Origin: Candidatus Aadella gelida
Lineage (GTDB): Bacteria > Omnitrophota > Gorgyraeia > Tantalellales > Tantalellaceae
Length of the DNA: 64,000 nt
NCBI GenBank assembly: GCA_030765205.1
Contig: JAVCDB010000106.1
Location: 906-64,905, forward strand
Reading direction: 5' to 3'
Part shown: one piece after another, positions 22,016 through 61,572 of the stretch
Numbering within the stretch: the stretch's first letter is position 1
How the letters are laid out: each line of letters begins with the position of its first letter
Translations under genes and position numbers: made by a program
Notes under the pieces: model-generated
What the model saw: only the letters and a program-made list of their open reading frames with translations
Database searches by the model: none
Told to the model about the DNA's origin: nothing

Positions 22016-22301
22016 TTTTGATTCGTGATTCGTAAGTCGTGACTCGTGAACAGTAAACGGTGAATAGTTATCTGTTGACCATAGACTATTGACAATTGAC
22101 TATTGACCTTTCAATTTTCACAGCAGTCGATCTCTACCTTTTAGACTGTTCCCCGCATCAGTCCAACCTAACATTTAAACCTTTAAAACTTTTTACCCTT
22201 TTAAACTCATCATCACATCAGTCACTCTAGACTACCCTCTACCTTCTAGCTTCTACCAACTGCCCTCTATCCCCTAAAACCTATAACCTAACACCTACTT
22301 C
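22016..22301. repeat. Heptad MITE-like element, copy in orientation A. It has a tcgtgaN/cagtRaa heptamer array, a TTGACNA terminal inverted repeat, a conserved core (ccgcatcagtcc) and a cctaNaa heptamer array
   Basis: Read directly. The inverted copy lies at 23336-23577. Confidence 0.75.
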
Positions 22302-22492
22302 CCGCTCTTAAAAACTTTTTCCATTACATTAGTTTGATTTTTGTAGAAACGGCTATATTCACTTATAAGATTATTTCCGGATTTGGACACGCCTTTAGGG
22401 GGCGCATTCTTTTTTGAAGTTGTGCGGTTCTTTCCATATATGGATTCGCCTATTTCGCAGGCCTGTATATACTTTTTCATCGTATTATTCAC
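22295..22492 (-). CDS. Hypothetical small Lys-rich protein (65 aa)
   Basis: ORF only. It lies inside the segment bracketed by the inverted repeat copies and overlaps the next ORF by 8 nt. Confidence 0.25.
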   Translation of the reverse strand: MNNTMKKYIQACEIGESIYGKNRTTSKKNAPPKGVSKSGNNLISEYSRFYKNQTNVMEKVFKSGK

Positions 22493-22676
22493 AATCCTTT
22501 ATTGTTAAATATGATCTTTTACCCAGACCGGAAGATGAAACAACATACCTTTTTACTCCGAGATGTTCTATCCCTGCAGGCAGAGCTCTCGCCTTTTTGA
22601 TCCTTTCTACCATGTTCACACAATTTATGAACTCCATCTGCTTTTTGTGAAATTTTATCGCGTATCTTCTATACAT
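22485..22676 (-). CDS. Hypothetical small protein (63 aa)
   Basis: ORF only; sits between mraZ and the repeat. Confidence 0.25.
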   Translation of the reverse strand: MYRRYAIKFHKKQMEFINCVNMVERIKKARALPAGIEHLGVKRYVVSSSGLGKRSYLTIKDCE

Positions 22677-22705
22677 GTTGCCCTCCCTTTTTACTAAAAT
22701 ATTGT

Positions 22706-23143
22706 TTATAGTTCGATCAAGCCCTCGGCAATTTCTTCATAATTCTGCTTTGAGCTTTTATAAAATTCGTCCCATTTCTTTTTGTCCCATATCTCTATAC
22801 GGTTTGATACCCCTATTATCATTATGCTCTTTGATAGCTTCGCATAATCCTTAAGATAATCCGGGACCAAGATCCTCCATTGTTTATCCGGCATAGCTTC
22901 AAATGCTCCTGAAAAGAAAAGTCTCTTAAATTTTCTGACCTCTCTCTTTGTAAAAGACAAGCTCTTGAACTTGCTTTCCTGCACAAGCCATTCGCTCTCC
23001 GTAAAAACAAAAAGGCATTCATCCAACCCACGTGTAAGGTACAACTTTTCCTCGCCGGAATCCTTAATAGGCTTACGGAAACGGGCCGGAATTATCAGCC
23101 TGCTCTTCTTGTCTAGACTATGTGCGTACTCACCGTAAAACAC
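22706..23143 (-). CDS. mraZ: Transcriptional regulator MraZ
   Basis: Two MraZ repeats (GEYAHSLDKKSRLIIPARFR and the second half). The likely start is the GTG at 23141-23143, preceded by GGAGGTAAGTGGA. Confidence 0.85.
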   Translation of the reverse strand: MFYGEYAHSLDKKSRLIIPARFRKPIKDSGEEKLYLTRGLDECLFVFTESEWLVQESKFKSLSFTKREVRKFKRLFFSGAFEAMPDKQWRILVPDYLKDYAKLSKSIMIIGVSNRIEIWDKKKWDEFYKSSKQNYEEIAEGLIEL

Positions 23144-23335
23144 TCCACTTACCTCCACTTTAATCCACCAACATATGCAAGTATACACACAAACAGGGAT
23201 CTTGTCAAATATGTAACTTTCGGGATTTTTAAATTTTACGAAATTTTACGCAATATATAGTGGTATGTGGTATTGAATGGCTTATATCTTGTGGATAAAA
23301 ATAGTTAAAAAAGTTTACCGCCGAGACTCTGCAAA

Positions 23336-23577
23336 GGGGCGTTATTAGACTATAACCATTGACCATAGACAGAGAATGACCTATGTAGGATGAGTTTAAA
23401 AAGTTTTAAAGGTTTAAAGGTTAGGTTGGACTGATGCGGGGAACAGTCTAAAAGGTAGGGATCGACTGCTGTGAAGATTGAAAGGTCAATAGTCAATTGT
23501 CAATAGTCTATGGTCAACAGATAACTATTCACCGTTTACTGTTTACTGCTTACTGTTCACGAATCACAAGTCACGAC
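23336..23577. repeat. Heptad MITE-like element, copy in orientation B (inverted relative to 22016-22301)
   Basis: Its core is the reverse complement of the 22081-22200 core; it ends in a cagtaaa/cgtgaat heptamer array. Confidence 0.75.
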
Positions 23578-23580
23578 AAT

Positions 23581-23620
23581 AAAAAAGGGGATGCGAAATA
23601 ATTCGCATCCCCTTTTTTTT
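23581..23620. terminator. Bidirectional rho-independent terminator (ggggatgcgaa-ataa-ttcgcatcccc with A6 and T8 flanks)
   Basis: 11-bp GC-rich stem with T-runs on both sides; immediately after the stop of the 23637..24074 gene. Confidence 0.8.
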
Positions 23621-23636
23621 ATTGTAAATTACAATC

Positions 23637-24074
23637 TTATGCTGCTTTTTCTTCTTGCGCCTTTTTCTGCTCTTCCTGAATCTTTCTTTTGTAACATTTT
23701 TTTGTGCAATAGAACGAGCCATTACGATAGTACCACAGCTTCTTCAGCAGGGCTTTTGCACATGCCGCACATTCCTCCGGCTTCTGAGGCTTTGTAGCTT
23801 TAGGTTGCCGGGCAGGCCCCTTCTTTACTTCTTCTTTGACCTCTTCCTTAGGAGCCTCGGGCTCTTTTACCGCTTCCTCTTTCGCCGGTTCTTTTTTTGC
23901 CGGTTCCTCTTTTGCCGGTTCTTCTTTTGCCGGTTCTTCCTTCGCCGGTTCTTCCTTCGCCGGTTCTTCTTTTGCCGGTTCTTCCTTCGCCGGTTCTTCC
24001 TTCGCCGGTTCTTCCTTTGCTGCTTCTTCAGCGGGCTCTACTTTTTCTTCTTTCTTTTCTTCTTCCTTACCCAT
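23637..24074 (-). CDS. Lys/Glu/Pro/Ala tandem-repeat protein, (AKEEP)x9, with a C-terminal C-x2-C-x18-C-x3-C tail
   Basis: The protein has about 9 perfect pentapeptide repeats encoded by a 15-bp DNA tandem array, followed by CAAC...CTKKC. No family recognised. Confidence 0.5.
   Translation of the reverse strand: MGKEEEKKEEKVEPAEEAAKEEPAKEEPAKEEPAKEEPAKEEPAKEEPAKEEPAKEEPAKKEPAKEEAVKEPEAPKEEVKEEVKKGPARQPKATKPQKPEECAACAKALLKKLWYYRNGSFYCTKKCYKRKIQEEQKKAQEEKAA
23878..24025. repeat. 15-bp tandem repeat array (gccggttcttcYttY x ~9-10) inside the coding region
   Basis: Read directly; it encodes the AKEEP repeats on the minus strand. Confidence 0.85.
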
Positions 24075-24099
24075 ATCTCCTCCGTTCTTCCATGTTTTA

Positions 24100-24444
24100 T
24101 TATTTTTCTTTTGCAGTTATCCACTTCTTATATATGTATTCGAGTATTCTTCCTCTATCCTCGCTTTTGATCTTTTTAAATTTGATACCACCCTGATGAT
24201 CTGCCTCCCCAGGAAGGGTTCCTCCGACCCAAGCTATCTGCCCTTCGAATATTATTGGAATATTATCTCCCGGGATCATCATCTCAAGTTCCAGATCCTC
24301 ACCCTGGTCCAAAGCCTCATCGCTTAACACGCCCACACCATCTCTGCAGAAATTATTCACCTTAAGTTTCTTTAAAGATCCTTTTCTCCGGCATATCGCA
24401 TCTAATAAAATATCAAAACGTATAAACCTTCTTTTCTCGCTCAT
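24100..24444 (-). CDS. PilZ-domain protein (c-di-GMP receptor)
   Basis: RRFIRF (RxxxR) and DGVGV (D/NxSxGG-like) motifs; 114 aa. Confidence 0.65.
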   Translation of the reverse strand: MSEKRRFIRFDILLDAICRRKGSLKKLKVNNFCRDGVGVLSDEALDQGEDLELEMMIPGDNIPIIFEGQIAWVGGTLPGEADHQGGIKFKKIKSEDRGRILEYIYKKWITAKEK

Positions 24445-24545
24445 TCATCCTCCCATAAACAACAACTCAAATCTATCTCACAAAATGTAAAGCCATATAA
24501 AGCGACACTAAAACATAAACTGCTGACCCGATAAAATAGAAAGGG

Positions 24546-24584
24546 AACGACGCGAAATCGTTCCCTTTCTATTTAAACTTCACA
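24546..24584 (-). terminator. Rho-independent terminator after the TIGR04073-like gene (agggaacga-cgcgaaa-tcgttccct + T-run)
   Basis: 9-bp stem followed by a T-rich tract on the minus strand. Confidence 0.55.
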
Positions 24585-24597
24585 TCAATTATATAAA

Positions 24598-24927
24598 TTA
24601 GTCGCTAAATACATATTCCGGCTCTATAACTGGCTGATAATCTTCAGGTATTGGGAACGGGAACGTTACGGTTTCATAAACGCCTGCACCTGTTCTTACT
24701 ATCGTCATACCTATACCTTTTGCTAGCCCCATTGTCAGACCAGAAAGTACATTTTCTTCAACGCTTGTTTCGTAAATATTTTTAGGAAGTTCAACCCATC
24801 CTGTTAAAACATTAGCAATACCTCTGCCTAGTTTCTTTGCAGGATCCTGAGCATAACACTGTGTGGTCATACCTACCATTCCTATGATAACACAACATAC
24901 GAATAACACCTTAAATGTCTTCTTCAT
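24598..24927 (-). CDS. Small secreted protein resembling the exosortase-system-associated TIGR04073 family
   Basis: Signal peptide followed by the motif KKLGRGIANVLTGWVELPKNIY...TFPFP; 109 aa. Family assignment made from memory of that motif. Confidence 0.5.
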   Translation of the reverse strand: MKKTFKVLFVCCVIIGMVGMTTQCYAQDPAKKLGRGIANVLTGWVELPKNIYETSVEENVLSGLTMGLAKGIGMTIVRTGAGVYETVTFPFPIPEDYQPVIEPEYVFSD

Positions 24928-25001
24928 AATTCTGTTTCACCTCCTCCTCTTATATACATTCTCAAAATTCTAATGAAGTATATCATGCGATTTTTACCAT
25001 G

Positions 25002-25370
25002 TCAAGTATCTGACCTTATTATATCATTAACCAATTTCCTTATTCTTCCCTTGTCTTCTTTCTGGAGATCTATAAATTCAATCCCTGTATCGTACAAAAC
25101 GGCACTCAGATCCTTATCTGAGCCCCCTTTTACCACCCATACCACTTTACCTCTACACCTTACTGGTTGCTGCCCTTCCCCTATGAAAACTTCCAGATTA
25201 ACCTTATCAAAGATCTTTATCTCCTCGGTCAGGGAAACACAAATACCGCCCTGCCCTATATTCTCAATGCAGGTATCGATCAAGCTTTCTTTATCGTCCC
25301 TACACACTAATATACGACATTTATAACTAACTCTCGGAAACTTTCTGCCGTTCATTCCGTCCCATATCAT
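25002..25370 (-). CDS. PilZ-domain protein (c-di-GMP receptor)
   Basis: RKFPRV (RxxxR) and NIGQGGICV (NxSxGG-like); 122 aa. Confidence 0.65.
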   Translation of the reverse strand: MIWDGMNGRKFPRVSYKCRILVCRDDKESLIDTCIENIGQGGICVSLTEEIKIFDKVNLEVFIGEGQQPVRCRGKVVWVVKGGSDKDLSAVLYDTGIEFIDLQKEDKGRIRKLVNDIIRSDT

Positions 25371-25409
25371 AATAATATACTATACACGAGTAAAAATGTA
25401 AAAACAAGA

Positions 25410-25946
25410 CTATCTGAGCTTTAATTCAAACTCATTCCCCTTTGGGGACATCATAAGCACTTTATCCTGGAATACCTCAAGCACGGTAAACCCATCGACT
25501 ATCTCTCCCCTAGAAACTACTGCATCGTTAATAATAGCTTGAGGATCCTGGGCCGAATACATTATCCCATTCAGCTCAGGCAAGTTTTCCAATATCCCTG
25601 TTCCCTTGGGTCTCTTTATAGAAACAAATTCTTCCATAACAGTTTGCTTTCTAGAACTGCTCTCATCTGCAGAATTTCCTGCCCCGGGAACAGATATAAC
25701 CCGGGAACTCTTTATCGTCTCATCCTTCGAAACTAAACTCTTAGATATAACACCTACGGCAACTACAACACAAATAACAGTTAACGCACCGACTATAACG
25801 CTCTTGGGTATCTTTATCCTGCTGAATATACTGGGACTAGGATTAGCCGGAACGGATGAGGTATAAGTAAAAACAGTATCATCTTTTGTCTGTTTTTTAG
25901 ACCTGTCCTCTTGTGCTTTTTTTAATGCTTTCGCTATTATACTCAT
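25410..25946 (-). CDS. GspB/ExeB-like bitopic membrane protein (partner of the ExeA-like ATPase)
   Basis: Basic N-terminus, one TM, a Ser-rich linker, and a C-terminal beta-rich domain. Directly downstream of the ExeA-like gene. Confidence 0.4.
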   Translation of the reverse strand: MSIIAKALKKAQEDRSKKQTKDDTVFTYTSSVPANPSPSIFSRIKIPKSVIVGALTVICVVVAVGVISKSLVSKDETIKSSRVISVPGAGNSADESSSRKQTVMEEFVSIKRPKGTGILENLPELNGIMYSAQDPQAIINDAVVSRGEIVDGFTVLEVFQDKVLMMSPKGNEFELKLR

Positions 25947-25975
25947 ATGAATTTTTATACGATAAGAAGAATGAA

Positions 25976-26170
25976 CCGTTATCTGTTGACCATTGACTAT
26001 TGACTATTGACCTTTCAATTTTCACAGCAGTCGATCCCTACCCTTTAGACTGTTCTCCGCATCAGTCCAAACTGACCTTTAAACCTTTAAAACTTTTTAA
26101 CCTTTTAAACTGTCCTCACATCTGTCATTCTCTGTCTATAGTCAATGGTCTATTGTCAATAGTCTAATAA
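25976..26170. repeat. Heptad MITE-like element; complete compact copy (orientation A) with both terminal inverted repeats
   Basis: Left terminus gttgaccattgactattgactattgacc; right terminus, as reverse complement, ttattagactattgacaatagaccattgac. Core contains ccgcatcagtcc. Confidence 0.8.
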
Positions 26171-26199
26171 GGTCCTTTTTCTTTCTACCTTCTATTCTC

Positions 26200-27042
26200 C
26201 TATACATCTGCCGTCTGACCCATCTCTGTGTAATTAAACTGTCCCTCGGTCTCCTCTATACTTTTCCTCACTACATCTTCATCTATAACATGCGCTTCTT
26301 GAACAAACCCCAACAGCAATGCCTTGTCGCATATTATGTTCACTACTCTGGGGATACCCCTGGAATATTCATAAAGATCTAAAATAGCCTTATCCGAAAA
26401 ATCGGGACCGTTTTCTGAACCAGCAACGGATAGCCTGTGCTCGACATATCCTCGAAGTTCGGTCTCATCAAGTGCTCTAACATGAAACCTAACTCCTATA
26501 CGCTGACGAAGCTGCAATAAACCCGGAGCATTAAGTTTATCCTTAAGTTCCGGTTGTCCTACCAGGACGATTTGCAGAAGTTTCTCTTTCTCGGTTTCCA
26601 AATTAGACAACATCCGTATTGTTTCCAGAGTTGCTTTACGAAGATTTTGAGCCTCGTCGATTATTAAAACCGCATTGTTCCCTAAAGATAATTGCTGAAG
26701 AAGAAATTCATTAAGCTGCCGTATAAAGGCTCCTTTGCTTTTCCTCTTGACCTCTATCCCAAAATCGTTCAATACAGCCTCAAGTAGCTGTGTTTCAGGA
26801 AGGCTAGGATTAAAGATTAGAGAAGTTTTTGTCCTGGAATCGAACTGATTAAGGAGAGCCCGGCAGAGTGTAGTCTTCCCGGCTCCAACCTCTCCAGTTA
26901 TCTCTACAAACCCTTTTCTCTGTTCTATACCATACGAAAGATGCGCAAGAGCCTCACGATGGGTATGACTGAGATACAAAAAGTTCGGATCACTAGTTAC
27001 ATTGAAAGGGTTTTCCCTTAAACCATAGAAATCAAGATACAT
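26200..27042 (-). CDS. ExeA/GspA-like AAA ATPase (MSHA MshM / PEP-CTERM-locus ATPase type)
   Basis: ExeA-type N-terminus (LDFYGLRENPF), Walker A GEVGAGKT, Walker B LIIDEAQ. Confidence 0.8.
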   Translation of the reverse strand: MYLDFYGLRENPFNVTSDPNFLYLSHTHREALAHLSYGIEQRKGFVEITGEVGAGKTTLCRALLNQFDSRTKTSLIFNPSLPETQLLEAVLNDFGIEVKRKSKGAFIRQLNEFLLQQLSLGNNAVLIIDEAQNLRKATLETIRMLSNLETEKEKLLQIVLVGQPELKDKLNAPGLLQLRQRIGVRFHVRALDETELRGYVEHRLSVAGSENGPDFSDKAILDLYEYSRGIPRVVNIICDKALLLGFVQEAHVIDEDVVRKSIEETEGQFNYTEMGQTADV

Positions 27043-27094
27043 ATATTCCGTTTCTCCTCGGCAATATTATACTATTAAAGAATAAGGCAGTAAA

Positions 27095-27475
27095 GGGATA
27101 TAAGGTTTTAGGTTTTAGGTGCTAGGTTTTAGGGGTTAACATTGACCGATGAGTTGTTAGGGGCTAGGGTTCAGGGGAGAAAAAGTCACCAGGTCACCGG
27201 TGATTGGGGCGTTATTAGACCATTGACAATAGACCATTGACTATAGACAGGGAATGACCGATGTTATAATTGAATAATAGAAAAAAGAGAGAAATGACGG
27301 TAGACTATGGAGTAATATTTTTTGTTAAGAGATCTTTAAAGGTCAATAGTCAATGGTCAATGGTCAATGGTCAACAGATAACTATTCACTATTTACTGTT
27401 CACTTTATACTACACTCTATATTCTAAAACTACAAACTATGAACTACCCACTACTAACTATCATCCTACATATCT
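27095..27475. repeat. Heptad MITE-like element (orientation B), with a ggttttA/ggtgctA heptamer array, terminal inverted repeats and an actaNNa array
   Basis: Segments at 27095-27262 and 27335-27475. The internal segment is the reverse complement of the 27935-28010 interior. Confidence 0.7.
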
Positions 27476-27855
27476 CTTACTTTGGAAGGAACGGGAACGA
27501 CCTTTCCGGCTTTATCTATGAAAGCATGTTTAGTATATCCCATTGAGGTAGTCTTTCCCTCTTTGGTGACTTCATATTCAAAAGTTATACGTGACTTTCT
27601 TATGTCTGTCATTATGGCTTTCACTTTTACAATATCATCATATCTGACAGGAGAACGGTAACGGCATTGAGCCTCCGTTACAGGAAGAAAAAGACCTTCC
27701 TCTTCTAGACCTTTATAACACATGCCGTTTGCTCTGAACATCTCCGTTCTTGCTATCTCGAACCAGACAAGATAATTCGCATAATATACAAATCCCATCT
27801 GATCGGTTTCTTTGTAGTTTACTCTATGCTCTATAGTGTGCTCCCTCATGATCAT
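27466..27855 (-). CDS. Acyl-CoA thioesterase (hotdog fold, YbgC/4HBT family)
   Basis: HRVNYKETDQMGFVYYANYLVWFE motif. Start moved to an internal Met (27853-27855) because the longer ORF N-terminus is encoded by the repeat. Confidence 0.75.
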   Translation of the reverse strand: MIMREHTIEHRVNYKETDQMGFVYYANYLVWFEIARTEMFRANGMCYKGLEEEGLFLPVTEAQCRYRSPVRYDDIVKVKAIMTDIRKSRITFEYEVTKEGKTTSMGYTKHAFIDKAGKVVPVPSKVRDM

Positions 27856-27887
27856 CCTTTTGTCGTATAGCGTAACTAGTAATCTGC

Positions 27888-28075
27888 GATCAGTAAACAG
27901 TGAACGGTTATCTGTTGACCACAGACAATTGACTATTGACAATTGACTTTTAAAGATCTCTCAACGAAAAATATTGTCCATAGTCTACTGGCATTTCTCT
28001 CTTTTTTCTACTCTTCAATCCCAACATCGGTCATTCTCTGTCTATAGTCAATGGTCTATTGTCTATAGTCTAACA
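27888..28075. repeat. Heptad MITE-like element (orientation A); forms an inverted pair with 27095-27475 around the thioesterase gene
   Basis: cagtaaa heptamers, TTGAC terminal inverted repeat, ...tctgtctatagtcaatggtctattgtctatagtcta. Confidence 0.75.
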
Positions 28076-28089
28076 TAGCTAGCCTACTT

Positions 28090-28506
28090 TCAGCTTGCTA
28101 TGATCTTTACATAAACTTTTCTTTTTCTGGGCCCGTCAAACTCACAAAAGTATATACCCTGCCATGTTCCTAAAAGAAGTTTTCCCTCTTCTACTATAAT
28201 GTGTGACGAGGCGCCTATAATGGATGCCTTGATATGCGCTGGGGAATTCCCTTCGGCATGCTTATATCCTAGTTTTTCTGATACTACATCTTCGAGCCCT
28301 TTTATCATATCAGTTTTGACATCGGGATCAGCATTTTCATTTATGGTAAGAGCGGCGGTCGTATGAGGGGTAAAAACATGACAGACCCCCTCTCCCGCAT
28401 TAGATGAGGTAACCAAGGATGTTACTTTTTCGGTTATATCAATAAATTGTATCTTATCGGAGGATATTACATCAATAATGAAAAGATTTTTATTCGACAT
28501 ATTCAC
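28090..28506 (-). CDS. YjbQ/UPF0047-family protein (secondary thiamine-phosphate synthase-like)
   Basis: Family-typical 138-aa protein (VFTPHTTAALTINENADPDV). Confidence 0.7.
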   Translation of the reverse strand: MNMSNKNLFIIDVISSDKIQFIDITEKVTSLVTSSNAGEGVCHVFTPHTTAALTINENADPDVKTDMIKGLEDVVSEKLGYKHAEGNSPAHIKASIIGASSHIIVEEGKLLLGTWQGIYFCEFDGPRKRKVYVKIIAS

Positions 28507-29581
28507 TAAGGGCAGATCTTACCGGAAGCTCGGGAATGTCCTCGACGACTTCCACTTTTCCAATGCGGCGAGGAAGAATCAACCTGGTTGTTCCGGAAAC
28601 GAATTTTTTGTCATAGGAATAGGCCTTCATAACCTCTTCTACCCCCACCTTTTGAATACGTTCCGGCAGACCTATCTTTTTAAGAAGAGCCTTCATTCGT
28701 ATGAACTCTTTTTCTTTTAGCATATCGAACCTTAACGCTATCTCCCCGGCAAGGATCATGCCCAGAGCCACAGCTTCTCCATGATTATATTTTTTCGAAT
28801 AACCCGCAGCGGCCTCAATCGCATGACCTAAAGTGTGTCCGAAATTCAACATTATCCTGACGTCTTTCTCATCCCTCTCGTCTTTTTCAACTATCCGGGC
28901 CTTCATTTTCACACAATCATAAATGATCTTCTCAATAGCTTGTTTATTGAGCTTCAATATTTTTTCTGTATTACCTTCGAGAAAAGTAAAAAATTCTTTA
29001 CTTGATATCATTCCATATTTTACAACTTCTCCCATCCCATTGCATATCTGCCGTTTTGGCAGGGTTTTCAGAAAATCTGTATCAGCAATAACTATTTTAG
29101 GCTGATAAAATGCTCCTACGAGATTTTTCGCTTCAGGGAGATCCACTCCAACCTTTCCTCCTACTGAAGAATCAACCTGCGCCAATAAAGTGGTAGGAAT
29201 CTGTACTAAAGGCACTCCCCGCCTATATGTAGAAGCAACAAAACCGGCCAAATCGCCGATAACTCCTCCGCCTATGGCAACCACCAGGGGACGGTGTCTC
29301 TTGGTCCTTTTTCCTATCTTTTGAATAACATCACGGAAGACATCAATAGATTTTGATTTCTCCTCTCCGGGAACAGTTATGCTAAACTGATCATTTGGCA
29401 GTTTATTCAATACGGGACATATCTTATGTTTAGCCTTTTTCCAAACCGTCCTATCAGCCACTATAGCTATAGGACCCTTGAAATTCATTTCTTTAATGAC
29501 TTCAGGCAAGTGAGCAAACGAATTGGATCCTATGATAATATCATACGATCTCTTTTTTAATTTGAGTATTATCTTCTTCAT
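28490..29581 (-). CDS. aroB: 3-dehydroquinate synthase
   Basis: GGGVIGDLAGFVA NAD-binding glycine motif and metal-binding His residues; 363 aa. Confidence 0.88.
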   Translation of the reverse strand: MKKIILKLKKRSYDIIIGSNSFAHLPEVIKEMNFKGPIAIVADRTVWKKAKHKICPVLNKLPNDQFSITVPGEEKSKSIDVFRDVIQKIGKRTKRHRPLVVAIGGGVIGDLAGFVASTYRRGVPLVQIPTTLLAQVDSSVGGKVGVDLPEAKNLVGAFYQPKIVIADTDFLKTLPKRQICNGMGEVVKYGMISSKEFFTFLEGNTEKILKLNKQAIEKIIYDCVKMKARIVEKDERDEKDVRIMLNFGHTLGHAIEAAAGYSKKYNHGEAVALGMILAGEIALRFDMLKEKEFIRMKALLKKIGLPERIQKVGVEEVMKAYSYDKKFVSGTTRLILPRRIGKVEVVEDIPELPVRSALSEYVE

Positions 29582-29641
29582 AGTAAGTGAAATATAGCAT
29601 ATAACCGGTAAAAAGGCAAAAAAATCACCATTGACATGATG

Positions 29642-30373: not shown

Positions 30374-30401
30374 TATACGCTTTGAAACATTTTAGATCTG
30401 T

Positions 30402-30722: not shown

Positions 30723-30724
30723 TA

Positions 30725-31018: not shown

Positions 31019-31199
31019 TTTTTCTCCTTATTGAACGTACAGATACCGCTTCTAAAAACATCCTGAATGTTCCTGACGTCGGTTACTGTCTTTTTTATCT
31101 CTCTCTCTCTTTTCTTCGTGCTTTGTCTTTTCCCTCGCAAGCCCCACTATGGGTAGTGTTAGATTGTAATTGAAAAACCCTGCTTGGTCAAGCACGATT

Positions 31200-31880: not shown

Positions 31881-31889
31881 ATATAAGAA

Positions 31890-34060: not shown

Positions 34061-34081
34061 ACAATATCCTATCTCTTTTCT

Positions 34082-38490: not shown

Positions 38491-38659
38491 AAGAAGGAAA
38501 TCTCAAATAATTATGAATAATAACGAATAAAATACCGCAATAAATAAACGGGTTAGTTATTAAAAACCAAGAACACATCTTATATTATCCCCCCACCCAA
38601 GTCAATATATATATTAAAATAAATGCCACACTTTCAAGCCCAATTTCCCTTGACAAAAT

Positions 38660-39300
38660 AATAGCCCCTTCGTCCGAATTTATTGTCACTACCATTATCG
38701 GAAACCGAGGCAAAGCCAAGGTTTCAAGAACGTCTGGGGCCACCTTTAAACACAAAAAAGGGGACAGTTGCCCTCACAAATTCGCAAACGGTACAAAATA
38801 GGGACATATGCTGAGTAATTGAACCTTTGTCAGAGTTTATTGTCGTTATTATTATCGGAAACCGAGGCAAAGCCAAGGTTTCAGGGTAGTTCCGTGTACA
38901 GCAAGGGGAAACCGAGGGCGAAGCCCAAGGTTTTAAGATAGTTCACGTGTACGGTGAGGGGATACCGTGTTACTCTTCCCTGCTACACTTACAGGTTCCC
39001 ACGAGCTCGCTCCGATGTTTGCGAGGAAAACTTTCTGGAAAGCTCGGTTTTCAGAAAGTTTGACGACCAAACATCAAAAAAAGGCAACTGTAAACAGTTG
39101 CCTTTTTGCCATAATTTTTCGAAGAAAAATTATGGAACGAGTGAGGGGAAACCGAAGCCACAGGCTGAGGTTCCCACGAACTCGCTGATAATGTTTGCGA
39201 GGAGAAATTTTAGAAAAGCTTGCTTTTCTAAAATTTTGACGACCAAACATTAAAAAACCCAAGTGCAAACCACTTGGGTTTTACCAACTTTTCCCTGAAA
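38660..39300. repeat. Array of degenerate direct repeats derived from the 3' half of the adjacent tRNA-Gly. It includes a 60-bp duplication (38668-38727 and 38824-38887) and two tandem ~150-bp paralogous units (38951-39110 and 39137-39282), each ending in a hairpin plus T-run
   Basis: Read directly: cgagtgaggggaaaccgaagccacaggctgag versus the tRNA's cgagtgaggggaatcgaacccccgtagccagc. Terminator hairpins at 39083-39108 and 39257-39282. Confidence 0.65.
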
Positions 39301-39303
39301 AGT

Positions 39304-39377
39304 TGGAGCGAGTGAGGGGAATCGAACCCCCGTAGCCAGCTTGGGAAGCTGATGTACTACCATTGTACTACACTCGC
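39304..39377 (-). tRNA. tRNA-Gly (anticodon CCC), CCA encoded
   Basis: Hand-folded: acceptor GCGAGTG/CACTCGC, D-stem GTAC/GTAC, anticodon stem TCAGC/GCTGG with loop TTCCCAA, T-arm GGGGG-TTCGATT-CCCCT, discriminator U, CCA. Confidence 0.8.
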
Positions 39378-45560: not shown

Positions 45561-45747
45561 TCGTGATTCGTAATTCGTGAACAGTAAACAGTGAACAGTG
45601 ACCTGTTGACTATTGTCTATTGACAATTGACCTTTTTAACCCGTTCTCCGCATCAGTCCGATCTGACTTTTAAACCTTTAAAACTTTTTAACCTTTTAAA
45701 CTGTCCCCATATCGGTCATTCTTTGTCTATTGTCAATAGTCTAATAA
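45561..45747. repeat. Heptad MITE-like element; the cleanest copy (orientation A) showing 7-nt periodicity from end to end
   Basis: tcgtgat tcgtaat tcgtgaa cagtaaa cagtgaa cagtgac ctgttga ctattgt ctattga caattga ... attgtca atagtct aataaca. Confidence 0.8.
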
Positions 45748-45802
45748 CATCCCCCGTCTTTCTTCCTTCTGATCTCTATAACCTATACCCTGAACCCTAT
45801 TA

Positions 45803-49638: not shown

Positions 49639-49658
49639 GCTCGCCCTGCCTTTCTTTA

Positions 49659-50462: not shown

Positions 50463-50539
50463 TTCATTCCCCTTCGTACTGTTAATAGTGCACTAGTATG
50501 GATATGATTATTATATGGTAACGTGGTGCGGAGGTAAAG

Positions 50540-50760
50540 AAATATTCGTACAATAAGATTGTAAGCAGTAGGCGGGGTTCTAACCCAGCCTACCATCAGT
50601 AAATGACTACGTACGAGTAGCCGGGGTTTAAACCCCGGCTACTGTTGTGGATAACTACGAACAAGGCAGCTCCCCTTAATACTGTTAACAATAAATGGGT
50701 TATAGTTACGAGTATTATATGACAACGCAGTGCAGAGGTAAAGAAATAAAGGTGTAGATA
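50540..50760. repeat. Noncoding region with two paralogous palindromes (gtaggcggggttctaacccagcctac and gtagccggggtttaaaccccggctac) bracketed by a direct repeat (atggtaacgtggtgcggaggtaaagaaata...)
   Basis: Read directly. No ORF. GC-rich relative to its surroundings. Confidence 0.55.
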
Positions 50761-51035
50761 TGTTCTTTTTTAGGAGGCGCCGAGAACGCGACCGAGGGAC
50801 ACCGTTCCCGAGGAAGTGCAGAGGGTAGAGATTCTCTGCTAATGTCCGAGACGAATGAGGATATAACTTATGGAGCTATAGCGAACATAAGTTATAAATC
50901 CGAATTTGGATCGAAATCTCCCGATTTCGACGTTTTGAAAGTCAGATTGATTTGAACCTTTGGGCATTTCCCCTGGGGACAGGTTTGGGAACAATTTCGG
51001 AAACGTCCCTATCTCTACGCCTATCTTTATGTTCC

Positions 51036-53843: not shown

Positions 53844-53873
53844 GATAAAGACATTATATACCGTACCGCTGAT

Positions 53874-56800: not shown

Positions 56801-57002
56801 CCAAAGGTACTGTTATAAGTTTCTCTACATCCGCGGGAGTAGATCCAGGATAGGTTGTAGTTACGGTCACTCTATCAAAATCCACATTCGGGAATATCTC
56901 TCTGCTCATTCCAAATAATACCGTTACCCCCACTATCAAAATAATAGCGGATATCAGATTCACAAAAAGAGATTGATTAACACTAAATTTAGGTAAGCTC
57001 AT
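53874..57002 (-). CDS. RND efflux transporter permease (AcrB/CusA superfamily)
   Basis: 12-TM RND architecture; 1042 aa. Confidence 0.88.
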   Translation of the reverse strand: MSLPKFSVNQSLFVNLISAIILIVGVTVLFGMSREIFPNVDFDRVTVTTTYPGSTPADVEKLITVPLEKEIREVDGIDEISSSSTAGISLIQIKLDPDEDNKQRVIRDIESAAKRVKGLPDAIDEDPIVEEMTSKQYAIIEVSLSGEMDEHTLQGYAEALEDEIEDIDGVAKITKSGYRDREIQVRVIPEKLEEYYVSVDEIEEALASRNISIPAGEMNTADTEYSVRTTGEFDTAAEVEEVIIRANDSGNWLKIKDVAEVKDTFKKESIIYKTRETRSINLVVQKKESGDAIDCVDKIREVSEAFEKRCPDDLEISYVNDYSFFTRRRLNVLKNNGWFGLVLVIFSMMLFLEKRVAMMAILGIPIAFFTTFIVMSVMGITINLISMFGLIIVLGMIVDDGIIVAENIFRYLEKGMPPREAAVKGAEEVMGAVTTAVFTTVAAFSPLLFMTGIIGKFIRDIPLVLIVALLASLAEALIILPSHLADFVKVKVDVKGKSLGVAKKVPWFEKLVKGYTWVVEGAIKRRYKVLFTFSMILILCVFLAGNVMKFRLFPSAGINYFFVRAEAPIGTPLEKTNDLIEPVERIVAQLPEEELDTFVTSVGSISEDRHDPFSGVASYMVQIAVYLTPEQDRKRKASDIIEELRAKTKDIQGFTEFRFEEAESGPPVGKAVEARIRGEDFEVLDTISAEYMDFLKSIDGTTDVTWDHKPGKEEILVKVDHNQAALAGITIQQVAKTVRSVFEGNVATRIKPVKAEEETDVTIMFPEGFGKDISVFEDIFIRNKYGNLIPLKTVAEIEKVPGSTTISHLDGKRVVTVSCNVDASKITPVEINRMLSEKFKDLSERYMGYSVKYGGEQEETMESLLSLLKAFMFAFLFIYLILSSFFRSLIQPLIVMLAIPFGLIGVVFAFLVHGMPFSFMAILGIVGLNGIVVNDSIVLVSFINKLRNDGSERYESIVKAGQMRLRPVLLTTITTVGGLSTVAYGIGGKDPFLVPMALAVCWGIAFATLLTLIVIPCIYSIVDDIAIKITHHTSMIRSVKVE

Positions 57003-58495
57003 AACATATCCTTGTATTTATCGAGAGTAACGTTCATTGTCCGGTTAAGATCGATCACCGCACTATTATATTTTTGAATGAACACAGCGTTCTCTAATTT
57101 AACATTCAGTATGTCTCTTTGATAATCAATTATTTTTTTAGTGTTGCTCCGGCCGTACTTAAACCGTTTTTCTTCTTCGGCAAGTTTTTTTTCTTCTAGC
57201 TCAACTGCCTTGTCAGAATACAGGATACTTTCCTTCAAGGCCTTCATGTCACCGAAAGCGTTTCCTATTTCAGTAATTATAGCGCGTTCTGTCTCCTTTA
57301 GAGTAATTAGGGCTTTTTCTTTCTCATGCTCGGCCTTAATTTTCTGGCTGAGTGCATCTCTATTATCGAGAGGTATTTCTACTTCTATCCCTGCGAGATA
57401 ATAAGTATTATCACCTCCTGTTGTTTTTCTTACAGCTTCGGTCAAGTCGCCTTCCAATCCGTTGACAGCCATACTTAAACTAACATCTACTTCCGGCAAG
57501 GTGTTATTCTTTTTGATCTTGAGATTCAATCCTTTTATCTCTATCTCTTTTTTTGCAACAAGATAATCCCTTCTTCTCATAAAGGCTTCTTTAAGGCATC
57601 CCTCGAGATCGACATGAGGCTCTTTCAACCTAATACCTTCTATTGCCTCCAGACCCTTCTCTGATCCTATATTCATCAACAATTTAAGATTAGCCCTAGC
57701 CTTTTCAAGATCGTTTTCAGAAATATTATATTCAGCTTTTATCCTTAAAAGATTAGCTTCCGAAGCTATCAGATCCACTTTTTCTGTGAGCCCTATCTCA
57801 AGATTCTTCTTATCAGTCTCATTCAGTTCTTCTGATCTTTTAAGCATCTCCTTGTATATATTCAAAGATTCTGTAGCGTGAACAAGGCCAATATATGCCT
57901 TTTCTACTTGAGAAATGACCCCCTCTATCCTGTCCTGCTCGTCAAGTCCAGCATTCTCTATAGACATTCTAGTTAAAGAAAGATTCCCCCTATCAATATA
58001 CCCCAATCCGTTTTTCGCTAAAGGCTGCACAAGCGTAACCATGCCTTCGACCTCATGTGCGGGATTTTTTGACGTAAATTCCGTATTATTCCACGACCTT
58101 TGGTCCGACAATTCCGCTGAAACTTCCGTTCCCGTGAGAAAGGTCTTTTTAAGACCTGCATAATACGAATTGGTCTGGTTGTCGTCAGAAGCAAAAACCG
58201 ATAATTGCTGACGTTTATCGTCTAAATAGGACGCTCCTCCGTACAAAACAGTATCGAAAACCGCTTCAGAATACATTCGATCTGTTTCCGCTATATAAAG
58301 ATCAAGCTTTGCCTTCTTCACTTCAAAACTATTTTTTAACGCGACCGTTACACATTCTTCTAGAGAAAAAGTTTCAATGGCATCCTCTTTACCTTCGAGC
58401 GTCATTCCCGAAACACATAGAAGTAAGGTAAGAGCGCAACATACCTTCAGAACTCTTAATCCCTTCTTCCTATTTTTAGAGCTGATAGATCTCAT
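56999..58495 (-). CDS. Outer-membrane efflux protein (TolC family)
   Basis: Signal peptide and tandem OEP repeats; 498 aa. Overlaps the RND gene by 4 bp. Confidence 0.8.
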   Translation of the reverse strand: MRSISSKNRKKGLRVLKVCCALTLLLCVSGMTLEGKEDAIETFSLEECVTVALKNSFEVKKAKLDLYIAETDRMYSEAVFDTVLYGGASYLDDKRQQLSVFASDDNQTNSYYAGLKKTFLTGTEVSAELSDQRSWNNTEFTSKNPAHEVEGMVTLVQPLAKNGLGYIDRGNLSLTRMSIENAGLDEQDRIEGVISQVEKAYIGLVHATESLNIYKEMLKRSEELNETDKKNLEIGLTEKVDLIASEANLLRIKAEYNISENDLEKARANLKLLMNIGSEKGLEAIEGIRLKEPHVDLEGCLKEAFMRRRDYLVAKKEIEIKGLNLKIKKNNTLPEVDVSLSMAVNGLEGDLTEAVRKTTGGDNTYYLAGIEVEIPLDNRDALSQKIKAEHEKEKALITLKETERAIITEIGNAFGDMKALKESILYSDKAVELEEKKLAEEEKRFKYGRSNTKKIIDYQRDILNVKLENAVFIQKYNSAVIDLNRTMNVTLDKYKDML

Positions 58496-58497
58496 TC

Positions 58498-58938
58498 TTA
58501 CCCTCTCAGTTTTGTATATACTTTAGTCAATAATCTCAAATATTCTTTTTTTTCATCATACGTAAACACGGAAAAAACATCGTTGACGACATCTATCTTC
58601 ATGCGATAGGTCTTTTCCACAATTCTTTTCCCTTTGGGGAGCATTAATACCATTACTACTCTGCGGTCCGTACCTGACCTTTCTCTCTTAACAAGCTTCA
58701 TTTCGGTCATCTTGTCGATAATCCCGGTAACAGCGCTCAAAGTTATCCCCAGAAGATCCGCAATATCACCCATACGACATGCACCTCTCTCTTTCAGCAT
58801 ATCCAATATCGCAATATGTGTCAGGCTTAAGTTATCCCTTCCCATTACCTTCATCTGTTTTACTACTATTTCCCGTAAGATAAGCGGGTGTATCTTAGCG
58901 AACTCTTCCCCTATATTTATCGTATTTTTCTTTTCCAT
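58498..58938 (-). CDS. MarR-family transcriptional regulator
   Basis: Winged helix-turn-helix (LSLTHIAILDMLKERGACRMGDIADLLGITLSAVTGIIDKM). Confidence 0.85.
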   Translation of the reverse strand: MEKKNTINIGEEFAKIHPLILREIVVKQMKVMGRDNLSLTHIAILDMLKERGACRMGDIADLLGITLSAVTGIIDKMTEMKLVKRERSGTDRRVVMVLMLPKGKRIVEKTYRMKIDVVNDVFSVFTYDEKKEYLRLLTKVYTKLRG

Positions 58939-59048
58939 GATCCATCCTTAAAATAAACTTAACCTACAAAATACTTAACTTACTTAACTATTTCTCCAGT
59001 AAAGTATATTCCTGTAAGGCAAATATGTCAAGTGTAATAGTTTGTAGT

Positions 59049-59340
59049 TGGGGGATGTTATTAGACTATTGACTATAGACCATCACTATAGACAGAGAAT
59101 GACCGATCCTTCTTCGCTGCTTGAAGACTAAAAAGAGGGTACAGCTTCGAAGAGACAAGTGTTTAAGAACAGTTTAAAAGGTTGAAAAGTTTTAAAGGTT
59201 TAAAATTCAGATTGGGCTGATGCAGGAAACGGTCTAAAAGGTAGGGATTGACTGATGTGAACAGTGAAAGGTCAATAGTCAATAGTCAATTGTCAAGGGT
59301 CAACAGATGACCTTTCACTATTCACTTTTACTGATCGTGC
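59049..59340. repeat. Heptad MITE-like element (orientation B), the longest interior variant
   Basis: ttattagactattgactatagac...cagattgggctgatgcaggaaacggtc...ggtcaatagtcaatagtcaattgtcaagggtcaacag. Confidence 0.75.
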
Positions 59341-59378
59341 TATACGCTATACTACATATTCTATACTAATTGCGACCT

Positions 59379-59867
59379 CTACCCTGCTAGGATTTCCTTA
59401 CCGGCTAGGCTCAATGCTAGAACTATTAGGCCAGCTATTAGTACTCCTGCGATTATTGCGGGAAGAGCGTATCTGAACCTTATTTTGAAAAGGGTGGCTG
59501 CCACGCATCCTGTCCAGGCACCTGTGATCGGAAGCGGAACAGCAACAAAAAGTATAAGGCCTAATGCTTCGAATTTTTCTATCAGACCGGCTTTTTTTCT
59601 TGTTCTTTCGAATAGCCAAGTAAAGAACTTTTCAAATACAGGAAGATGCCTTAACCTTTCCGAAACAGGCTTAAGCATTAAAAGTAGAGGAACAACCGGA
59701 ACCAGATTACCAAAGACACCCAAAAAATAGGCTTTTATCGGAGTGAAATCCATGGCTATTGCCAAAGGGATTGCTCCTCTCAATTCTGAGATAGGAAGTG
59801 CGGCCAAAATCATTACCCCGGCTTCCTTATTAAAAGATATTAATGTATCTGCTATCCTTTCCACCAT
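59379..59867 (-). CDS. Small multidrug-export-like membrane protein (COG2426 type)
   Basis: 4 TM segments and a PISELRGAIPLAI motif. Confidence 0.4.
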   Translation of the reverse strand: MVERIADTLISFNKEAGVMILAALPISELRGAIPLAIAMDFTPIKAYFLGVFGNLVPVVPLLLMLKPVSERLRHLPVFEKFFTWLFERTRKKAGLIEKFEALGLILFVAVPLPITGAWTGCVAATLFKIRFRYALPAIIAGVLIAGLIVLALSLAGKEILAG

Positions 59868-59868
59868 A

Positions 59869-60561
59869 TCATCCCCTTCCAGTGCGATGCCGCAGGATTA
59901 GCCATAAAAATTTCAGAGCATCTCTTAAAGGTCTTATTTTGGACGTTTCTTCTCCGTATATGGTCTGTACGGGAACTGATTTTATCATCATACCCTTAGC
60001 CGAAGCTTCCATAAGCATTTCCGAATCTATATCATATTTTTTTGATGTAAGCTCAAGTTTCGCCAATGAACTTATTTTTATTATCCTATATCCGCATTGA
60101 GTATCGGGGATATGCTGCCTACATATACCCGATACCACCCAAGACATAAATCTGTTCGTCAAATAACGTATGAGCGGCATGGATTTAGCGTTTTTCATCC
60201 TGTTTCCGATAACTATATCCGGTTCTTTCCAGTCTCCTTTAGTTGCGTCTATCAGGACGGGTATATCTTCCGTAGGATGCTGTCCGTCAGCATCCATTAT
60301 GATCATCCATTCAAAAGTTGTCTTTTTGAGAACATATTTTATCCCTTCTCTTACGGAAAAACCTTTCCCGAAATTTTTACGGTTCCTCATGACCATGGCA
60401 CCCGCGTCAAGCGCCACACGTTCGGTATTATCAGAAGAACCGTCATCTATCACCAAAACGCTTACCCCCATTCCGGCTATTTTTCTGACGATCGTCCCTA
60501 TCGTTCGCGCTTCGTTATACGAAGGCATTATAACTATTGTGTTTTCTGTTCTTGCGGCCAT
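59869..60561 (-). CDS. GT2 glycosyltransferase (polyprenyl-phosphate sugar transferase-like)
   Basis: VIMPSYNE...VIDDGSSDNT DXD-type motifs. Confidence 0.8.
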   Translation of the reverse strand: MAARTENTIVIMPSYNEARTIGTIVRKIAGMGVSVLVIDDGSSDNTERVALDAGAMVMRNRKNFGKGFSVREGIKYVLKKTTFEWMIIMDADGQHPTEDIPVLIDATKGDWKEPDIVIGNRMKNAKSMPLIRYLTNRFMSWVVSGICRQHIPDTQCGYRIIKISSLAKLELTSKKYDIDSEMLMEASAKGMMIKSVPVQTIYGEETSKIRPLRDALKFLWLILRHRTGRG

Positions 60562-61406
60562 ATTCTCCTAAAAGCGTACCATTGATCAGGATATTTTCTG
60601 ATATATTTTTCAAATATCTTGATATAATTTTTCATGATACTCTCTTCGTCAACTTTCGGGTCACCCGTAATAATGCTTTTATCGGGTCTTTCAAAAACAA
60701 AATCAAAAGTATCGTCAGTTTTTCTTATTCCGCTGCAAAACACTACCTGAGCACCTGTTCTTAAAGCTAAAGCTGCCGGGCCTCTGGGCATTATCGCCTT
60801 TTTTCCAAAAAATGTTATAGGAACGCCTACCGACGTATAGACTTTATCCCCCACAACTCCCACTACCTCATTCCTCGAAAGCGCCCTGAAACACTCTTTC
60901 ATCTTACTGCCTATGGGTATTGATTTAAATCCATTGAGGGCTCTTTGCCTTACAAAAAAATCATTTACCTTTTTGTCGGCATGTGTGAGAACTATCCCGC
61001 TTATAGGATATCCCAGACTTCCTATAACAGCCCCCCCAAGTTCCCAATTACCCAGATGCAGGGAAACAAGTACTAAACCCTTTCCCTCAGAAAGACATTC
61101 ATCAAAGTCCTTTTTACCTATGATATTGACGTTCGAATCTATATATTCACTAGTGAACTTGCGAAATCTGAAAAAATCGGCTAGATATTTAGAAAAGTTC
61201 CTGAAAACCTTAAAAACAAGCTTATCCAAGGTCTTATTGTCTGTGCCCTCTCCCAAGACTATCTTAAGATTCTCTTTTAGTTCCTTCTTATCTTGAACCG
61301 AGAATAGAAAAAAAATACGCGCTGTCCATCCTGCTATCAGATAACATACTTTTAGAGGTAAGTGAGCTGTTAAGAAAAATCCTATCCTATAAGCTAGATA
61401 TAACAT
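60534..61406 (-). CDS. Lysophospholipid/lipid A acyltransferase (LpxL/HtrB-like)
   Basis: N-terminal TM and an LPLAT-type HxxxxD region (LHLGNWE). Confidence 0.65.
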   Translation of the reverse strand: MLYLAYRIGFFLTAHLPLKVCYLIAGWTARIFFLFSVQDKKELKENLKIVLGEGTDNKTLDKLVFKVFRNFSKYLADFFRFRKFTSEYIDSNVNIIGKKDFDECLSEGKGLVLVSLHLGNWELGGAVIGSLGYPISGIVLTHADKKVNDFFVRQRALNGFKSIPIGSKMKECFRALSRNEVVGVVGDKVYTSVGVPITFFGKKAIMPRGPAALALRTGAQVVFCSGIRKTDDTFDFVFERPDKSIITGDPKVDEESIMKNYIKIFEKYIRKYPDQWYAFRRIWPQEQKTQ

Positions 61407-61488
61407 ATTATACCAGTTTCATTAATTAATTTATCCTTTTACAGTGGCCTTGCCGCATAAAACCATTTTTTTGCATATGCTATAGCAG

Positions 61489-61572
61489 GTTTTAGGTTCT
61501 AGGTGCTAGGTTGTAGGGTTATATTACCTTCCCTATAACCTAAAACCTAGCACCTAGCACCTAACACCTAAA
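61489..61572. repeat. Imperfect palindrome of ggtNNta heptamer arrays (ggtttta ggttcta ggtgcta ggttgta ... tataacc taaaacc tagcacc tagcacc taacacc)
   Basis: Read directly. Related to the heptamer array at 27100-27140 and to the 22270-22300 end. Confidence 0.7.

Follow-up and report, generated by a model that had tools for sequence, protein, structure and literature searches.

Intergenic elements with inverted arms of drifting heptanucleotide repeats are dispersed in Candidatus Aadella gelida (Omnitrophota)

Candidatus Aadella gelida is a member of the Omnitrophota represented by a metagenome-assembled genome (MAG) from Ace Lake, Antarctica, and the text describing it is silent on repeats, transposases and heptamers (PMC8542988). 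We analyzed a stretch of 64,000 nucleotides of this genome (contig JAVCDB010000106.1, positions 906 to 64,905; hereafter the window), in which nine intergenic loci carry arrays of 7-nt units. These loci probably represent a lineage-specific, dispersed, non-coding, hairpin-forming mosaic repeat family that resembles miniature transposable elements with inverted repeats (MITEs) or bacterial interspersed mosaic elements (BIMEs), built on heptad arrays of the type called short tandemly repeated repetitive sequences (STRRs). In a full copy, a variable core is enclosed by two inverted arms, each of which runs from GTTAT through three to five T(T/A)GACNA heptads. All nine loci had been listed in a first-pass annotation made from the sequence alone and were found where it had placed them; they comprise at least seven full copies, one solo arm and one bare heptad array. 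The elements, 100-300 bp in length and free of long or Pfam-matching open reading frames (ORFs), add up to ~1.9 kb, which corresponds to 3% of the window and to ~30% of the intergenic part. This agrees with the share of about 3% first given for them, and their description as wholly intergenic holds once two over-extended ORF starts are corrected (rsmH to ~22005 and a thioesterase gene to 27852).

The 7-nt period was assessed by a self-match scan (35-nt window, at least 74% self-match), which returned nine segments at lag 7; lags 3-6 and 8-13 gave none. Across all 6,383 nt of intergenic DNA the lag-7 self-match was 0.344, relative to 0.273 +/- 0.0056 in 1000 shuffles (z = 12.6), with harmonics at 14, 21 and 28, while coding DNA showed period 3 only. 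Thus, the autocorrelation and shuffle controls named as checks when the elements were first described find a significant periodicity, and find it in intergenic DNA only. Tandem Repeats Finder reported many period-7 and period-14 arrays, confined to the nine loci. Arrays range from 4 to 23 heptad units, and adjacent heptads differ by 0-3 bases over as many as 23 consecutive units in a 7-nt register, compared to 5-7 bases in the non-heptad cores. The mean Hamming distance rises from 1.9-2.5 between neighbours to about 3-5.7 at a separation of 8 units, and the natural unit order was tested against 20,000 permutations, giving p ≤ 2e-4 in five of six arrays and 0.013 in the sixth. The units had been said to 'morph' along each array, and this growth of distance with separation bears the description out; the series quoted as its example (tcgtgat > tcgtaat > tcgtgaa > cagtaaa > cagtgaa > cagtgac > ctgttga > ctattga > caattga) is that of element F, read in a 7-nt register.

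A rise of unit distance with separation is what local duplication followed by mutation predicts. Slipped-strand mispairing would duplicate and delete 7-nt units locally, creating and remodelling the arrays, and point mutation after duplication would leave a similarity that decays with distance, seen as 'morphing'. The arrays behave as slippage plus mutation predicts: neighbours are most alike, paralogous copies vary in how many heptads they have in each arm and outer array, and unit sequences turn over between genomes. Misassembly or chimerism had been held open as an explanation of the repeats. Contigs from independent assemblies (JGI 3300025669, JGI 3300005918, Logan SRR5581654, SRR5458845 and ENA ERZ27315476) are 99.97-100% identical to the window, with the heptad number unchanged and every heptad identical in all of those compared, and so the repeats are not assembly artefacts.

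In the '+' orientation, which is that of element C, variable outer heptads (TCGTGAT > CAGTRAA) precede GTTATCTG and the 3-5 T(T/A)GACNA units that complete the left arm. The core follows, then CATCGGTCATTCTCTG, and then the right arm of TCTATAG/TCAATGG units up to a terminal TCTAATAAC; its reverse complement again starts GTTAT-TAGACNA-TTGACNA. Many copies carry an extra array past the right arm (GTCYCTC/TCTTCC > TCTACCY > CCTAAAA/CCTATAA). The two arm strings first quoted for the family were located at 25984 (gttgaccattgactattgac) and 27343 (gtcaatagtcaatggtcaa). The nine loci are as follows.

Element A, 22019..22301, plus strand: subfamily 1, no right arm; outer-left heptads 22019-22066 (TGATTCG > TGAACAG > TGAATAG); left arm 22067-22109 (GTTATCTG + TTGACCA TAGACTA TTGACAA TTGACTA TTGACCT); core 22110-22207; degenerate heptads 22208-22301 (CCCTCTA/CCTTCTA > CCTAAAA/CCTATAA); placed in the spacer that separates the rsmH start from the two small ORFs downstream of mraZ; 92% complementary to element B over 177 nt.
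Element B, 23336..23577, minus strand: subfamily 1, complete, 224.9 bits by nhmmer; right arm 23336-23385; core 23386-23483; left arm 23484-23525; outer-left heptads 23526-23577, abutting a terminator hairpin at 23581-23618.
Element C, 25978..26172, plus strand: subfamily 1, complete, hairpin z -2.9 and -4.4; left arm 25978-26013; core 26014-26125; right arm 26126-26172; occupies the spacer from an ExeA-like ATPase gene to the next gene.
Element D, 27095..27460, minus strand: subfamily 2, flanked by further arrays, scoring 239 bits on the profile of that subfamily; AGGTTTT array and GGTGACC palindrome 27095-27206; right arm 27207-27250; core 27251-27340; left arm 27341-27382; outer-left heptads 27383-27460.
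Element E, 27888..28075, plus strand: subfamily 2, hairpin z -2.7; outer-left heptads 27888-27906; left arm 27907-27947; core 27948-28035; right arm 28036-28075.
Element F, 45561..45800, plus strand: subfamily 1 with a 29-nt core deletion, in the efp-accB spacer; outer-left heptads 45561-45602; left arm 45603-45635; core 45636-45715; right arm 45716-45748; outer-right array 45749-45800.
Element G, 59055..59340, minus strand: subfamily 1 with ~55 nt inserted in the core, 208.8 bits; right arm 59055-59100; core 59101-59265; left arm 59266-59311; outer-left heptads 59312-59340; Logan contig L116 terminates within it.
Fragment H, 6235..6285, plus strand: solo right arm (ATCGGTCA... TCTATAG TCAATGG TCTATAG TCTAC), with no core and no left arm; profile matches at E 5e-5 and 8e-9.
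Array I, 61487..61572, no strand assigned: bare inverted AGGTTNT/CCTAAAA heptad hairpin (AGGTTTT/AGGTTCT/AGGTGCT/AGGTTGT, a 19-nt spacer and the inverse CTATAAC/CTAAAAC/CTAGCAC), without TTGAC arms or core; its heptad types also flank A, D and F.

Two subfamilies have the arms and a subterminal box in common, while their cores (~90-110 nt) are unrelated. The first-pass annotation had assigned one conserved core, ccgcatcagtcc ... tttaaacctttaaaac, to every locus. This core was found in A, B, C, F and, diverged, in G, which make up subfamily 1 and in which it is 83-92% conserved among copies, but not in H or I, nor in D and E; since D and E have the same arms around another core, they constitute a second subfamily. 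Likewise, TTGACNA terminal inverted repeats, described as common to all loci, are present in most copies but incomplete in A (no right arm) and H (a solo right arm), and absent from I, which has no TTGAC arms.

The arms pair over ~35 bp as terminal inverted repeats, and full copies fold as hairpins on this pairing, with z values of -2.7 to -4.4 relative to shuffles. Because all genes are co-directional and the spacers are short, the elements are probably transcribed within polycistronic RNAs. There, stems of ~35 bp would form and might affect RNA processing, stability or read-through; an effect on processing or read-through is suggested by analogy to the Correia, enterobacterial repetitive intergenic consensus (ERIC) and repetitive extragenic palindrome (REP) elements. 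The same folding beyond shuffles, together with the conservation of the subfamily 1 core, could also be taken to mean that the cores are small structured RNA genes with the arms as mere flanking stems. We regard this as very improbable: the consensus fold of 10 copies contains the arm stem alone and no covariation, cores are swapped or nearly absent across subfamilies and short copies, and the family occurs in both orientations relative to transcription. Moreover, the Rfam 15 covariance models, applied at the gathering threshold and at E ≤ 1, returned nothing relevant, the only hits being chance matches to a nearby terminator.

To place the elements in an evolutionary context, we compared the window to two sister MAGs, JBDRKO (contigs L006 and L113) and JBDRBI (contigs L007 and L114), with protein identity of 82-86%; AccC is at most 85% identical to that of other Omnitrophota MAGs. 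Gene order from yjbQ to murF is identical in Aadella and both sisters, and the spacers compare as follows.

ATPase gene to the next gene: 24 nt (L113) and 84 nt (L114) in the sisters; 253 nt in Aadella, with element C.
Small ORF to rsmH: 37 and 36 nt in the sisters; ~300 nt in Aadella, with element A.
efp to accB: 106 and 90 nt in the sisters, and 0-137 nt in 25 Omnitrophota loci; 258 nt in Aadella, with element F.

The element is missing from the orthologous sister spacers, where divergence is too great for a base-precise empty site. These short spacers indicate that the arm-core-arm units at the three sites were gained in the Aadella lineage, or lost elsewhere. The heptads themselves have a different distribution. 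JBDRKO retains the same TTCACGAATTACGAAT heptads beside accB (L006), but no TTGAC element, and the end of the same contig carries a TTGACNA arm after TCGTTAA/ACGTGAA units. In JBDRBI the spacer of 531 nt between the 4HBT and ATPase genes (L114) is full of GGTGACC and ACCCTNA heptads, which also flank element D. The arm junction sequence is not conserved even in the sister genus. In a wider set of 80 Omnitrophota accC loci (930 kb), 19 segments were found at lag 7 compared to 2-4 at every other lag, with unit sequences that differ from genome to genome. By these comparisons, the heptad background is older and wider than the arm-core-arm units; heptad arrays in Omnitrophota were not found described in the literature.

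JBDRBI also carries inverted arrays of its own, of GGTGACC and AGAGTCA/TGACTCT units (L114 4128-4658 and 7863-8482). Contig L009 has a module at two loci (5369-5504 and 7983-8130) in which GTGACGN units and AAGGTTAAA motifs are combined with a GC hairpin and ACGACGA arrays. As sister genomes have heptad-armed modules of their own, it seems that a separate family evolves in each genome, following a plan common to all. A resemblance to the core motif GGTTGGACYGATG in the spacer upstream of mraZ in L114 was set aside, as its 3 mismatches in 18 positions are about the chance level in 1.24 Mb.

Beyond the window, where a search had been proposed when the elements were first described, further copies occur in the same population, belonging to subfamily 2 on contigs L086, L094 and L105 and to subfamily 1 on L087. 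Mini copies of ~100 nt with a short palindromic core were found at L087 600-745, L094 2795-2995 and L115 4185-4286, a core-only fragment at L115 5583-5640, and at L087 8036-8215 a 180-nt tract that keeps one 7-nt register from TCGTGAT through TCTACCC into a right arm. An exact 27-mer arm pattern had no match in 185,579 species genomes, a set from which the source genome itself seems to be missing, and BLAST against phage and plasmid collections and two viral-contig scans returned nothing.

How such units spread bears directly on the MITE-like label that the first-pass annotation had given them. Arm-core-arm units could be copied to new spacers by a trans-acting transposase, as MITEs are, or by recombination or gene conversion between heptad arrays. 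In the strict form of the first mode, the elements would be deletion derivatives of an insertion sequence (IS), and a transposase encoded elsewhere in the genome would bind the iterated T(T/A)GACNA units of both arms and mobilize them in trans. The features that make the label apt are the inverted arms, both opening with GTTAT, the unrelated cores between the same ends, the mini forms and solo ends, the non-coding and intergenic dispersal in both orientations, and the absence from orthologous sister sites. In the sequence covered, the two signs of mobility that were to be looked for lend the label no support. No target-site duplication was seen beside the GTTAT termini of 10 copies, where the flanks are conserved heptad arrays, and no transposase, recombinase or autonomous partner with the same ends was found in the window, in another ~17 kb of flanking sequence (~81 kb contiguous in all) or beside the copies on L086, L087, L094 and L105. 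The Pfam matches of the element neighbours in the window and on these four contigs are to housekeeping genes only. An AAA_22 ATPase encoded between C and D was considered as a TniB-type transposition protein and rejected, being of the ExeA/XrtA-associated kind and in conserved synteny. Taking also into account the lack of matches in phage, plasmid and viral collections and the conservation of flanks beyond the arms, we consider descent from an insertion sequence in this strict sense possible but doubtful.

The missing duplications and the missing enzyme also weigh against the broader reading that we prefer, that of a dispersed mosaic repeat family on STRR-type arrays, and several further observations do so as well. 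The copies remain similar past the inverted arms into the flanking heptad arrays, and no boundary of a mobile unit stands out. Five neighbouring copies alternate in orientation. The arm stem in the consensus of ten copies has 17 predicted pairs, mostly invariant and none compensatory, and arms match only marginally better within copies (19.3) than between copies (18.5; p = 0.04). Finally, the independent assemblies compared did not differ in the presence of elements or in heptad number, and so give no sign of current mobility or current slippage.

The arm heptads had also been noted to spell the -35 hexamers of sigma-70 promoters, which raises the question of whether the elements are promoter clusters, with TTGACA, TTGACT and TTGACC as -35 boxes driving the adjacent genes. 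The hexamers TTGAC(A/T/C) are literally present in every arm, and 28 promoter-like matches were counted in 21900-28200 compared to 14.5 +/- 3.7 in shuffles. However, no match inside the elements exceeds 9 of 12 positions, the -10 hexamers there are poor, the TTGAC units read inward from both ends, and the elements lie either way relative to the genes. On the gene strand, the sites that match best (11 of 12 positions, TTGACA-17-TATACT) are outside the elements, at 23208 upstream of mraZ and at 25005. With no usable -10 and better sites elsewhere, the promoter reading was rejected, and we give it hardly any credence. Half-parS and MraZ-box resemblances noticed by eye were dropped because spacing and length did not fit.

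A metagenome scan with the arm junction returned TTGACNN arrays in unrelated contigs of 32-60% G+C, a similarity that the search pattern itself enforced in part. On one metagenome contig (L095), TTGACTG morphs into ATAACTG (= TAACTGA). On another, unrelated contig (L091, 55% G+C), an array at 2283-2348 between rpsE and rplO runs from ATCGTAC/ATCGTGA/ATCGTAA through ATCTG to five TTGACGA units and ends 14 nt ahead of the rplO start codon, in a unit order that resembles the left side of the Aadella elements.

The heptad arrays could be functional cis-elements, in-register sites for a protein that binds RNA, single-stranded or double-stranded DNA (for example of the cold-shock, S1 or CsrA type) and tunes translation or transcript fate, with the hairpin elements as part of the regulatory layer. 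In keeping with this, arrays abut the ribosome-binding sites of rsmH, accB, accA (L086), mnmE (L094) and accB (L009), related heptads are retained beside accB in the sister genus, the rpsE-rplO array occurs in an unrelated organism, and the same idea has been proposed for TAACTGA repeats (PMC4679880). On the other hand, proximity to start codons was not supported, since of the 40 arrays that lie in co-directional spacers, the upstream stop is the nearer gene boundary for 28 and the downstream start for 12 (from crude gene calls). Elements occur in both orientations relative to transcription, no candidate binding protein was identified, and units that differ between genomes and drift within arrays are hard to reconcile with one sequence-specific binder. 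We therefore hold a cis-regulatory role of the arrays to be unlikely. Its widest form would make heptad arrays and hairpin modules a functional intergenic layer across phyla (Omnitrophota, cyanobacteria, Beggiatoaceae, Bacteroidetes and others), read by a protein in a 7-nt register, and this we consider quite improbable. If it were true, the arrays could act as insulators or as tuners of translation or stability between co-directional genes, and the order TCGTRAA > ..CTG > TTGACNA, found also on the rpsE-rplO contig of 55% G+C, would reflect a common grammar rather than descent or chance.

Among known systems, CRISPR arrays consist of identical 24-48 nt repeats with unique spacers of similar length, and are ruled out by units that are 7 nt long, contiguous and degenerate. 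A REP unit is an imperfect palindrome of 20-40 nt, two inverted REPs form a REPIN, and a REP-associated tyrosine transposase (RAYT) gene is associated with them. The REP, BIME and REPIN architectures do not apply, as the Aadella arm is a direct heptad array and not a palindrome and no Y1-transposase-like gene was found among the annotated neighbours. In a general way, the elements are like Correia/NEMIS, ERIC, RUP, BIME and REPIN sequences in being small, non-coding, multi-copy, intergenic, present in either orientation and grouped in mosaic subfamilies, with inverted ends that form long hairpins when co-transcribed. They differ in having tandem heptads as arms in place of a unique terminal repeat or REP palindrome, and in lacking a visible target-site duplication, a cognate IS or a RAYT gene. 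The first-pass annotation had held that the architecture was not a known one. This stands with respect to REP/BIME, CRISPR and ERIC, but intergenic heptanucleotide arrays as such were already known (PMC4692102, PMC4679880, PMC3488679).

Heptanucleotide repeats have been known in cyanobacteria for decades. They are over-represented in many bacteria, with origin and function unsettled (PMC4679880, PMC4692102). Tandem heptanucleotide repeats are documented in Calothrix (PMC4692102), and heptamers are the commonest class of simple repeat in many bacteria, with polymerase slippage proposed as their origin (PMC4679880). Head-to-tail heptad arrays at many intergenic loci, over-represented relative to other unit lengths, are what the Aadella arrays have in common with the STRRs of Calothrix and Nostoc and with heptamer 'long simple sequence repeats' (Mrazek 2007, cited in PMC4692102 and PMC4679880). 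The hosts there are cyanobacteria and here Omnitrophota; units there are near-perfect, whereas here they drift along the array; and the Aadella arrays are organized as inverted arms around cores in a dispersed family. The STRR3 unit that Mazel et al. are said to have described in 1990, CAACAGT, would be a reverse-complement cyclic permutation of TTGACTG, and their STRR2 unit, reportedly TTGGTCA, would be one base off the ATGGTCA unit of the Aadella arrays.

TAACTGA arrays are known from marine Beggiatoaceae, cyanobacteria and Bacteroidetes (MacGregor 2015, PMC4679880). These are likewise short intergenic heptamer arrays, often just upstream of start codons and in ribosomal-protein operons, mixed with other heptamers and subject to 7-nt indels between strains (PMC4679880). 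Their units are different, they are not reported as inverted arms around a core (PMC4679880), and their start-codon bias was not reproduced for the Omnitrophota arrays.

The closest structural precedent is the P6b hairpin of the Nostoc tRNA-Leu intron, in which degenerate heptanucleotide repeats pair and variants arise by repeat number and by non-heptad inserts (2002 study, described in PMC3488679). The likeness extends to the arm-core-arm logic, the complementary runs of degenerate heptads and the slippage dynamics that are supposed for both. The P6b hairpin differs in being a single locus within a group I intron and in its unit sequences, compared to a dispersed intergenic family with GTTAT termini and subfamilies in Aadella. 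A further likeness is said to exist with the small dispersed repeats of Elhai et al. from 2008. What is new here is the host phylum, the multi-copy family with conserved GTTAT termini, the exchangeable cores, the mini forms and an order of heptad types that is conserved on both sides.

The Omnitrophota, which as a phylum are known solely through metagenomes and single cells, are thus rich in heptad arrays, and the Aadella family, with its dispersed arm-core-arm organization, is an unusually clear case in which simple-repeat dynamics are tied to MITE-like dispersal. In practical terms, the elements break short-read assemblies, with contigs ending inside them as expected of multi-copy repeats, and inflate ORF calls, as with the two gene starts that had been extended into elements in the window; they could also serve as strain markers. 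A binding protein or mobilizing enzyme, if found, would make the question 'why seven?' testable.

The window has a G+C content of 40% and a strong, uniform GC skew of ~-0.2, and its credible genes all lie on the minus strand. Exact protein matches place it in Antarctic-lake metagenomes (JGI 3300025669 and 3300005918, and Logan and ENA assemblies), and at NCBI the protein identical to its ExeA-like ATPase is listed under Candidatus Aadella gelida. Their content is housekeeping: a division and cell wall cluster (mraZ, two small ORFs, rsmH, ftsL, a penicillin-binding protein gene and mur genes to ftsA), ileS, efp-accB-accC, aroB, thiC, an acrB-type pump gene, lpxL and one tRNA-Gly. Over ~81 kb, comprising the window and its flanks on L109 and L115, ~64 genes are all on one strand and the GC skew per 2 kb is -0.11 to -0.34. 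For a diderm bacterium, co-orientation of this degree is extreme.

Between mraZ and element A, ~400 nt (22302-22705) contain no ORF of at least 90 aa. Both sister genomes have two small ORFs between mraZ and rsmH (63 and 64-69 aa, no Pfam match), and for this reason two small conserved genes are probably present in 22302-22705 too. At 23637-24074, on the minus strand, a gene encodes a 145-aa protein without a Pfam match, in which ~ten (K)EEPA pentapeptides, arising from 10.9 copies of a 15-nt tandem repeat, follow one another and a Cys-rich tail forms the end. This gene adjoins two PilZ-domain genes; in the sister genomes the ORF in its place encodes 114 and 170 aa.

A second, unrelated hairpin family of ~95-145 nt is represented in the window at 5923-6066 (arms 5923-5946 and 6043-6066) and on L109 at 12558-12650, 18506-18622 and ~19850-19942. 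Its arms differ among copies yet are 100%, 100% and 88% complementary within a copy, a pattern that, from the sequences, looks like compensatory change. The loops share ACAGTCC...GCGGAACTCGCTG, and Rfam gave no match. Because no gene was called there in L109, the 96-aa 'ORF' at 5916-6206 probably represents this hairpin and not a gene.

Two long intergenic regions have internal repeats of other kinds. Upstream of the tRNA-Gly gene (39304-39377), 813 nt (38491-39303) are free of genes and contain internally duplicated modules, namely 68-nt units 157 nt apart and 67-nt units 176 nt apart, as well as a 53-nt tandem with a GGAAACCGAGGC...GCCAAGGTTTC hairpin; Rfam matches in this region were sub-threshold only (ylbH leader, 33 bits relative to a gathering score of 50). 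The 573-nt intergenic region at 50463-51035, with no Rfam match at E ≤ 0.1, has a 48-nt repeat at 204-nt spacing (50497-50544 and 50701-50748, 81% identical). Just past the high-coordinate end of the window, a third short dispersed repeat, ttaca[gt]aacac[tc]aagtaaaaaagaacacaacag, is found in three intergenic copies (L115 ~2710, ~5545 and ~5680) near aconitase-type and lipoate-ligase genes.

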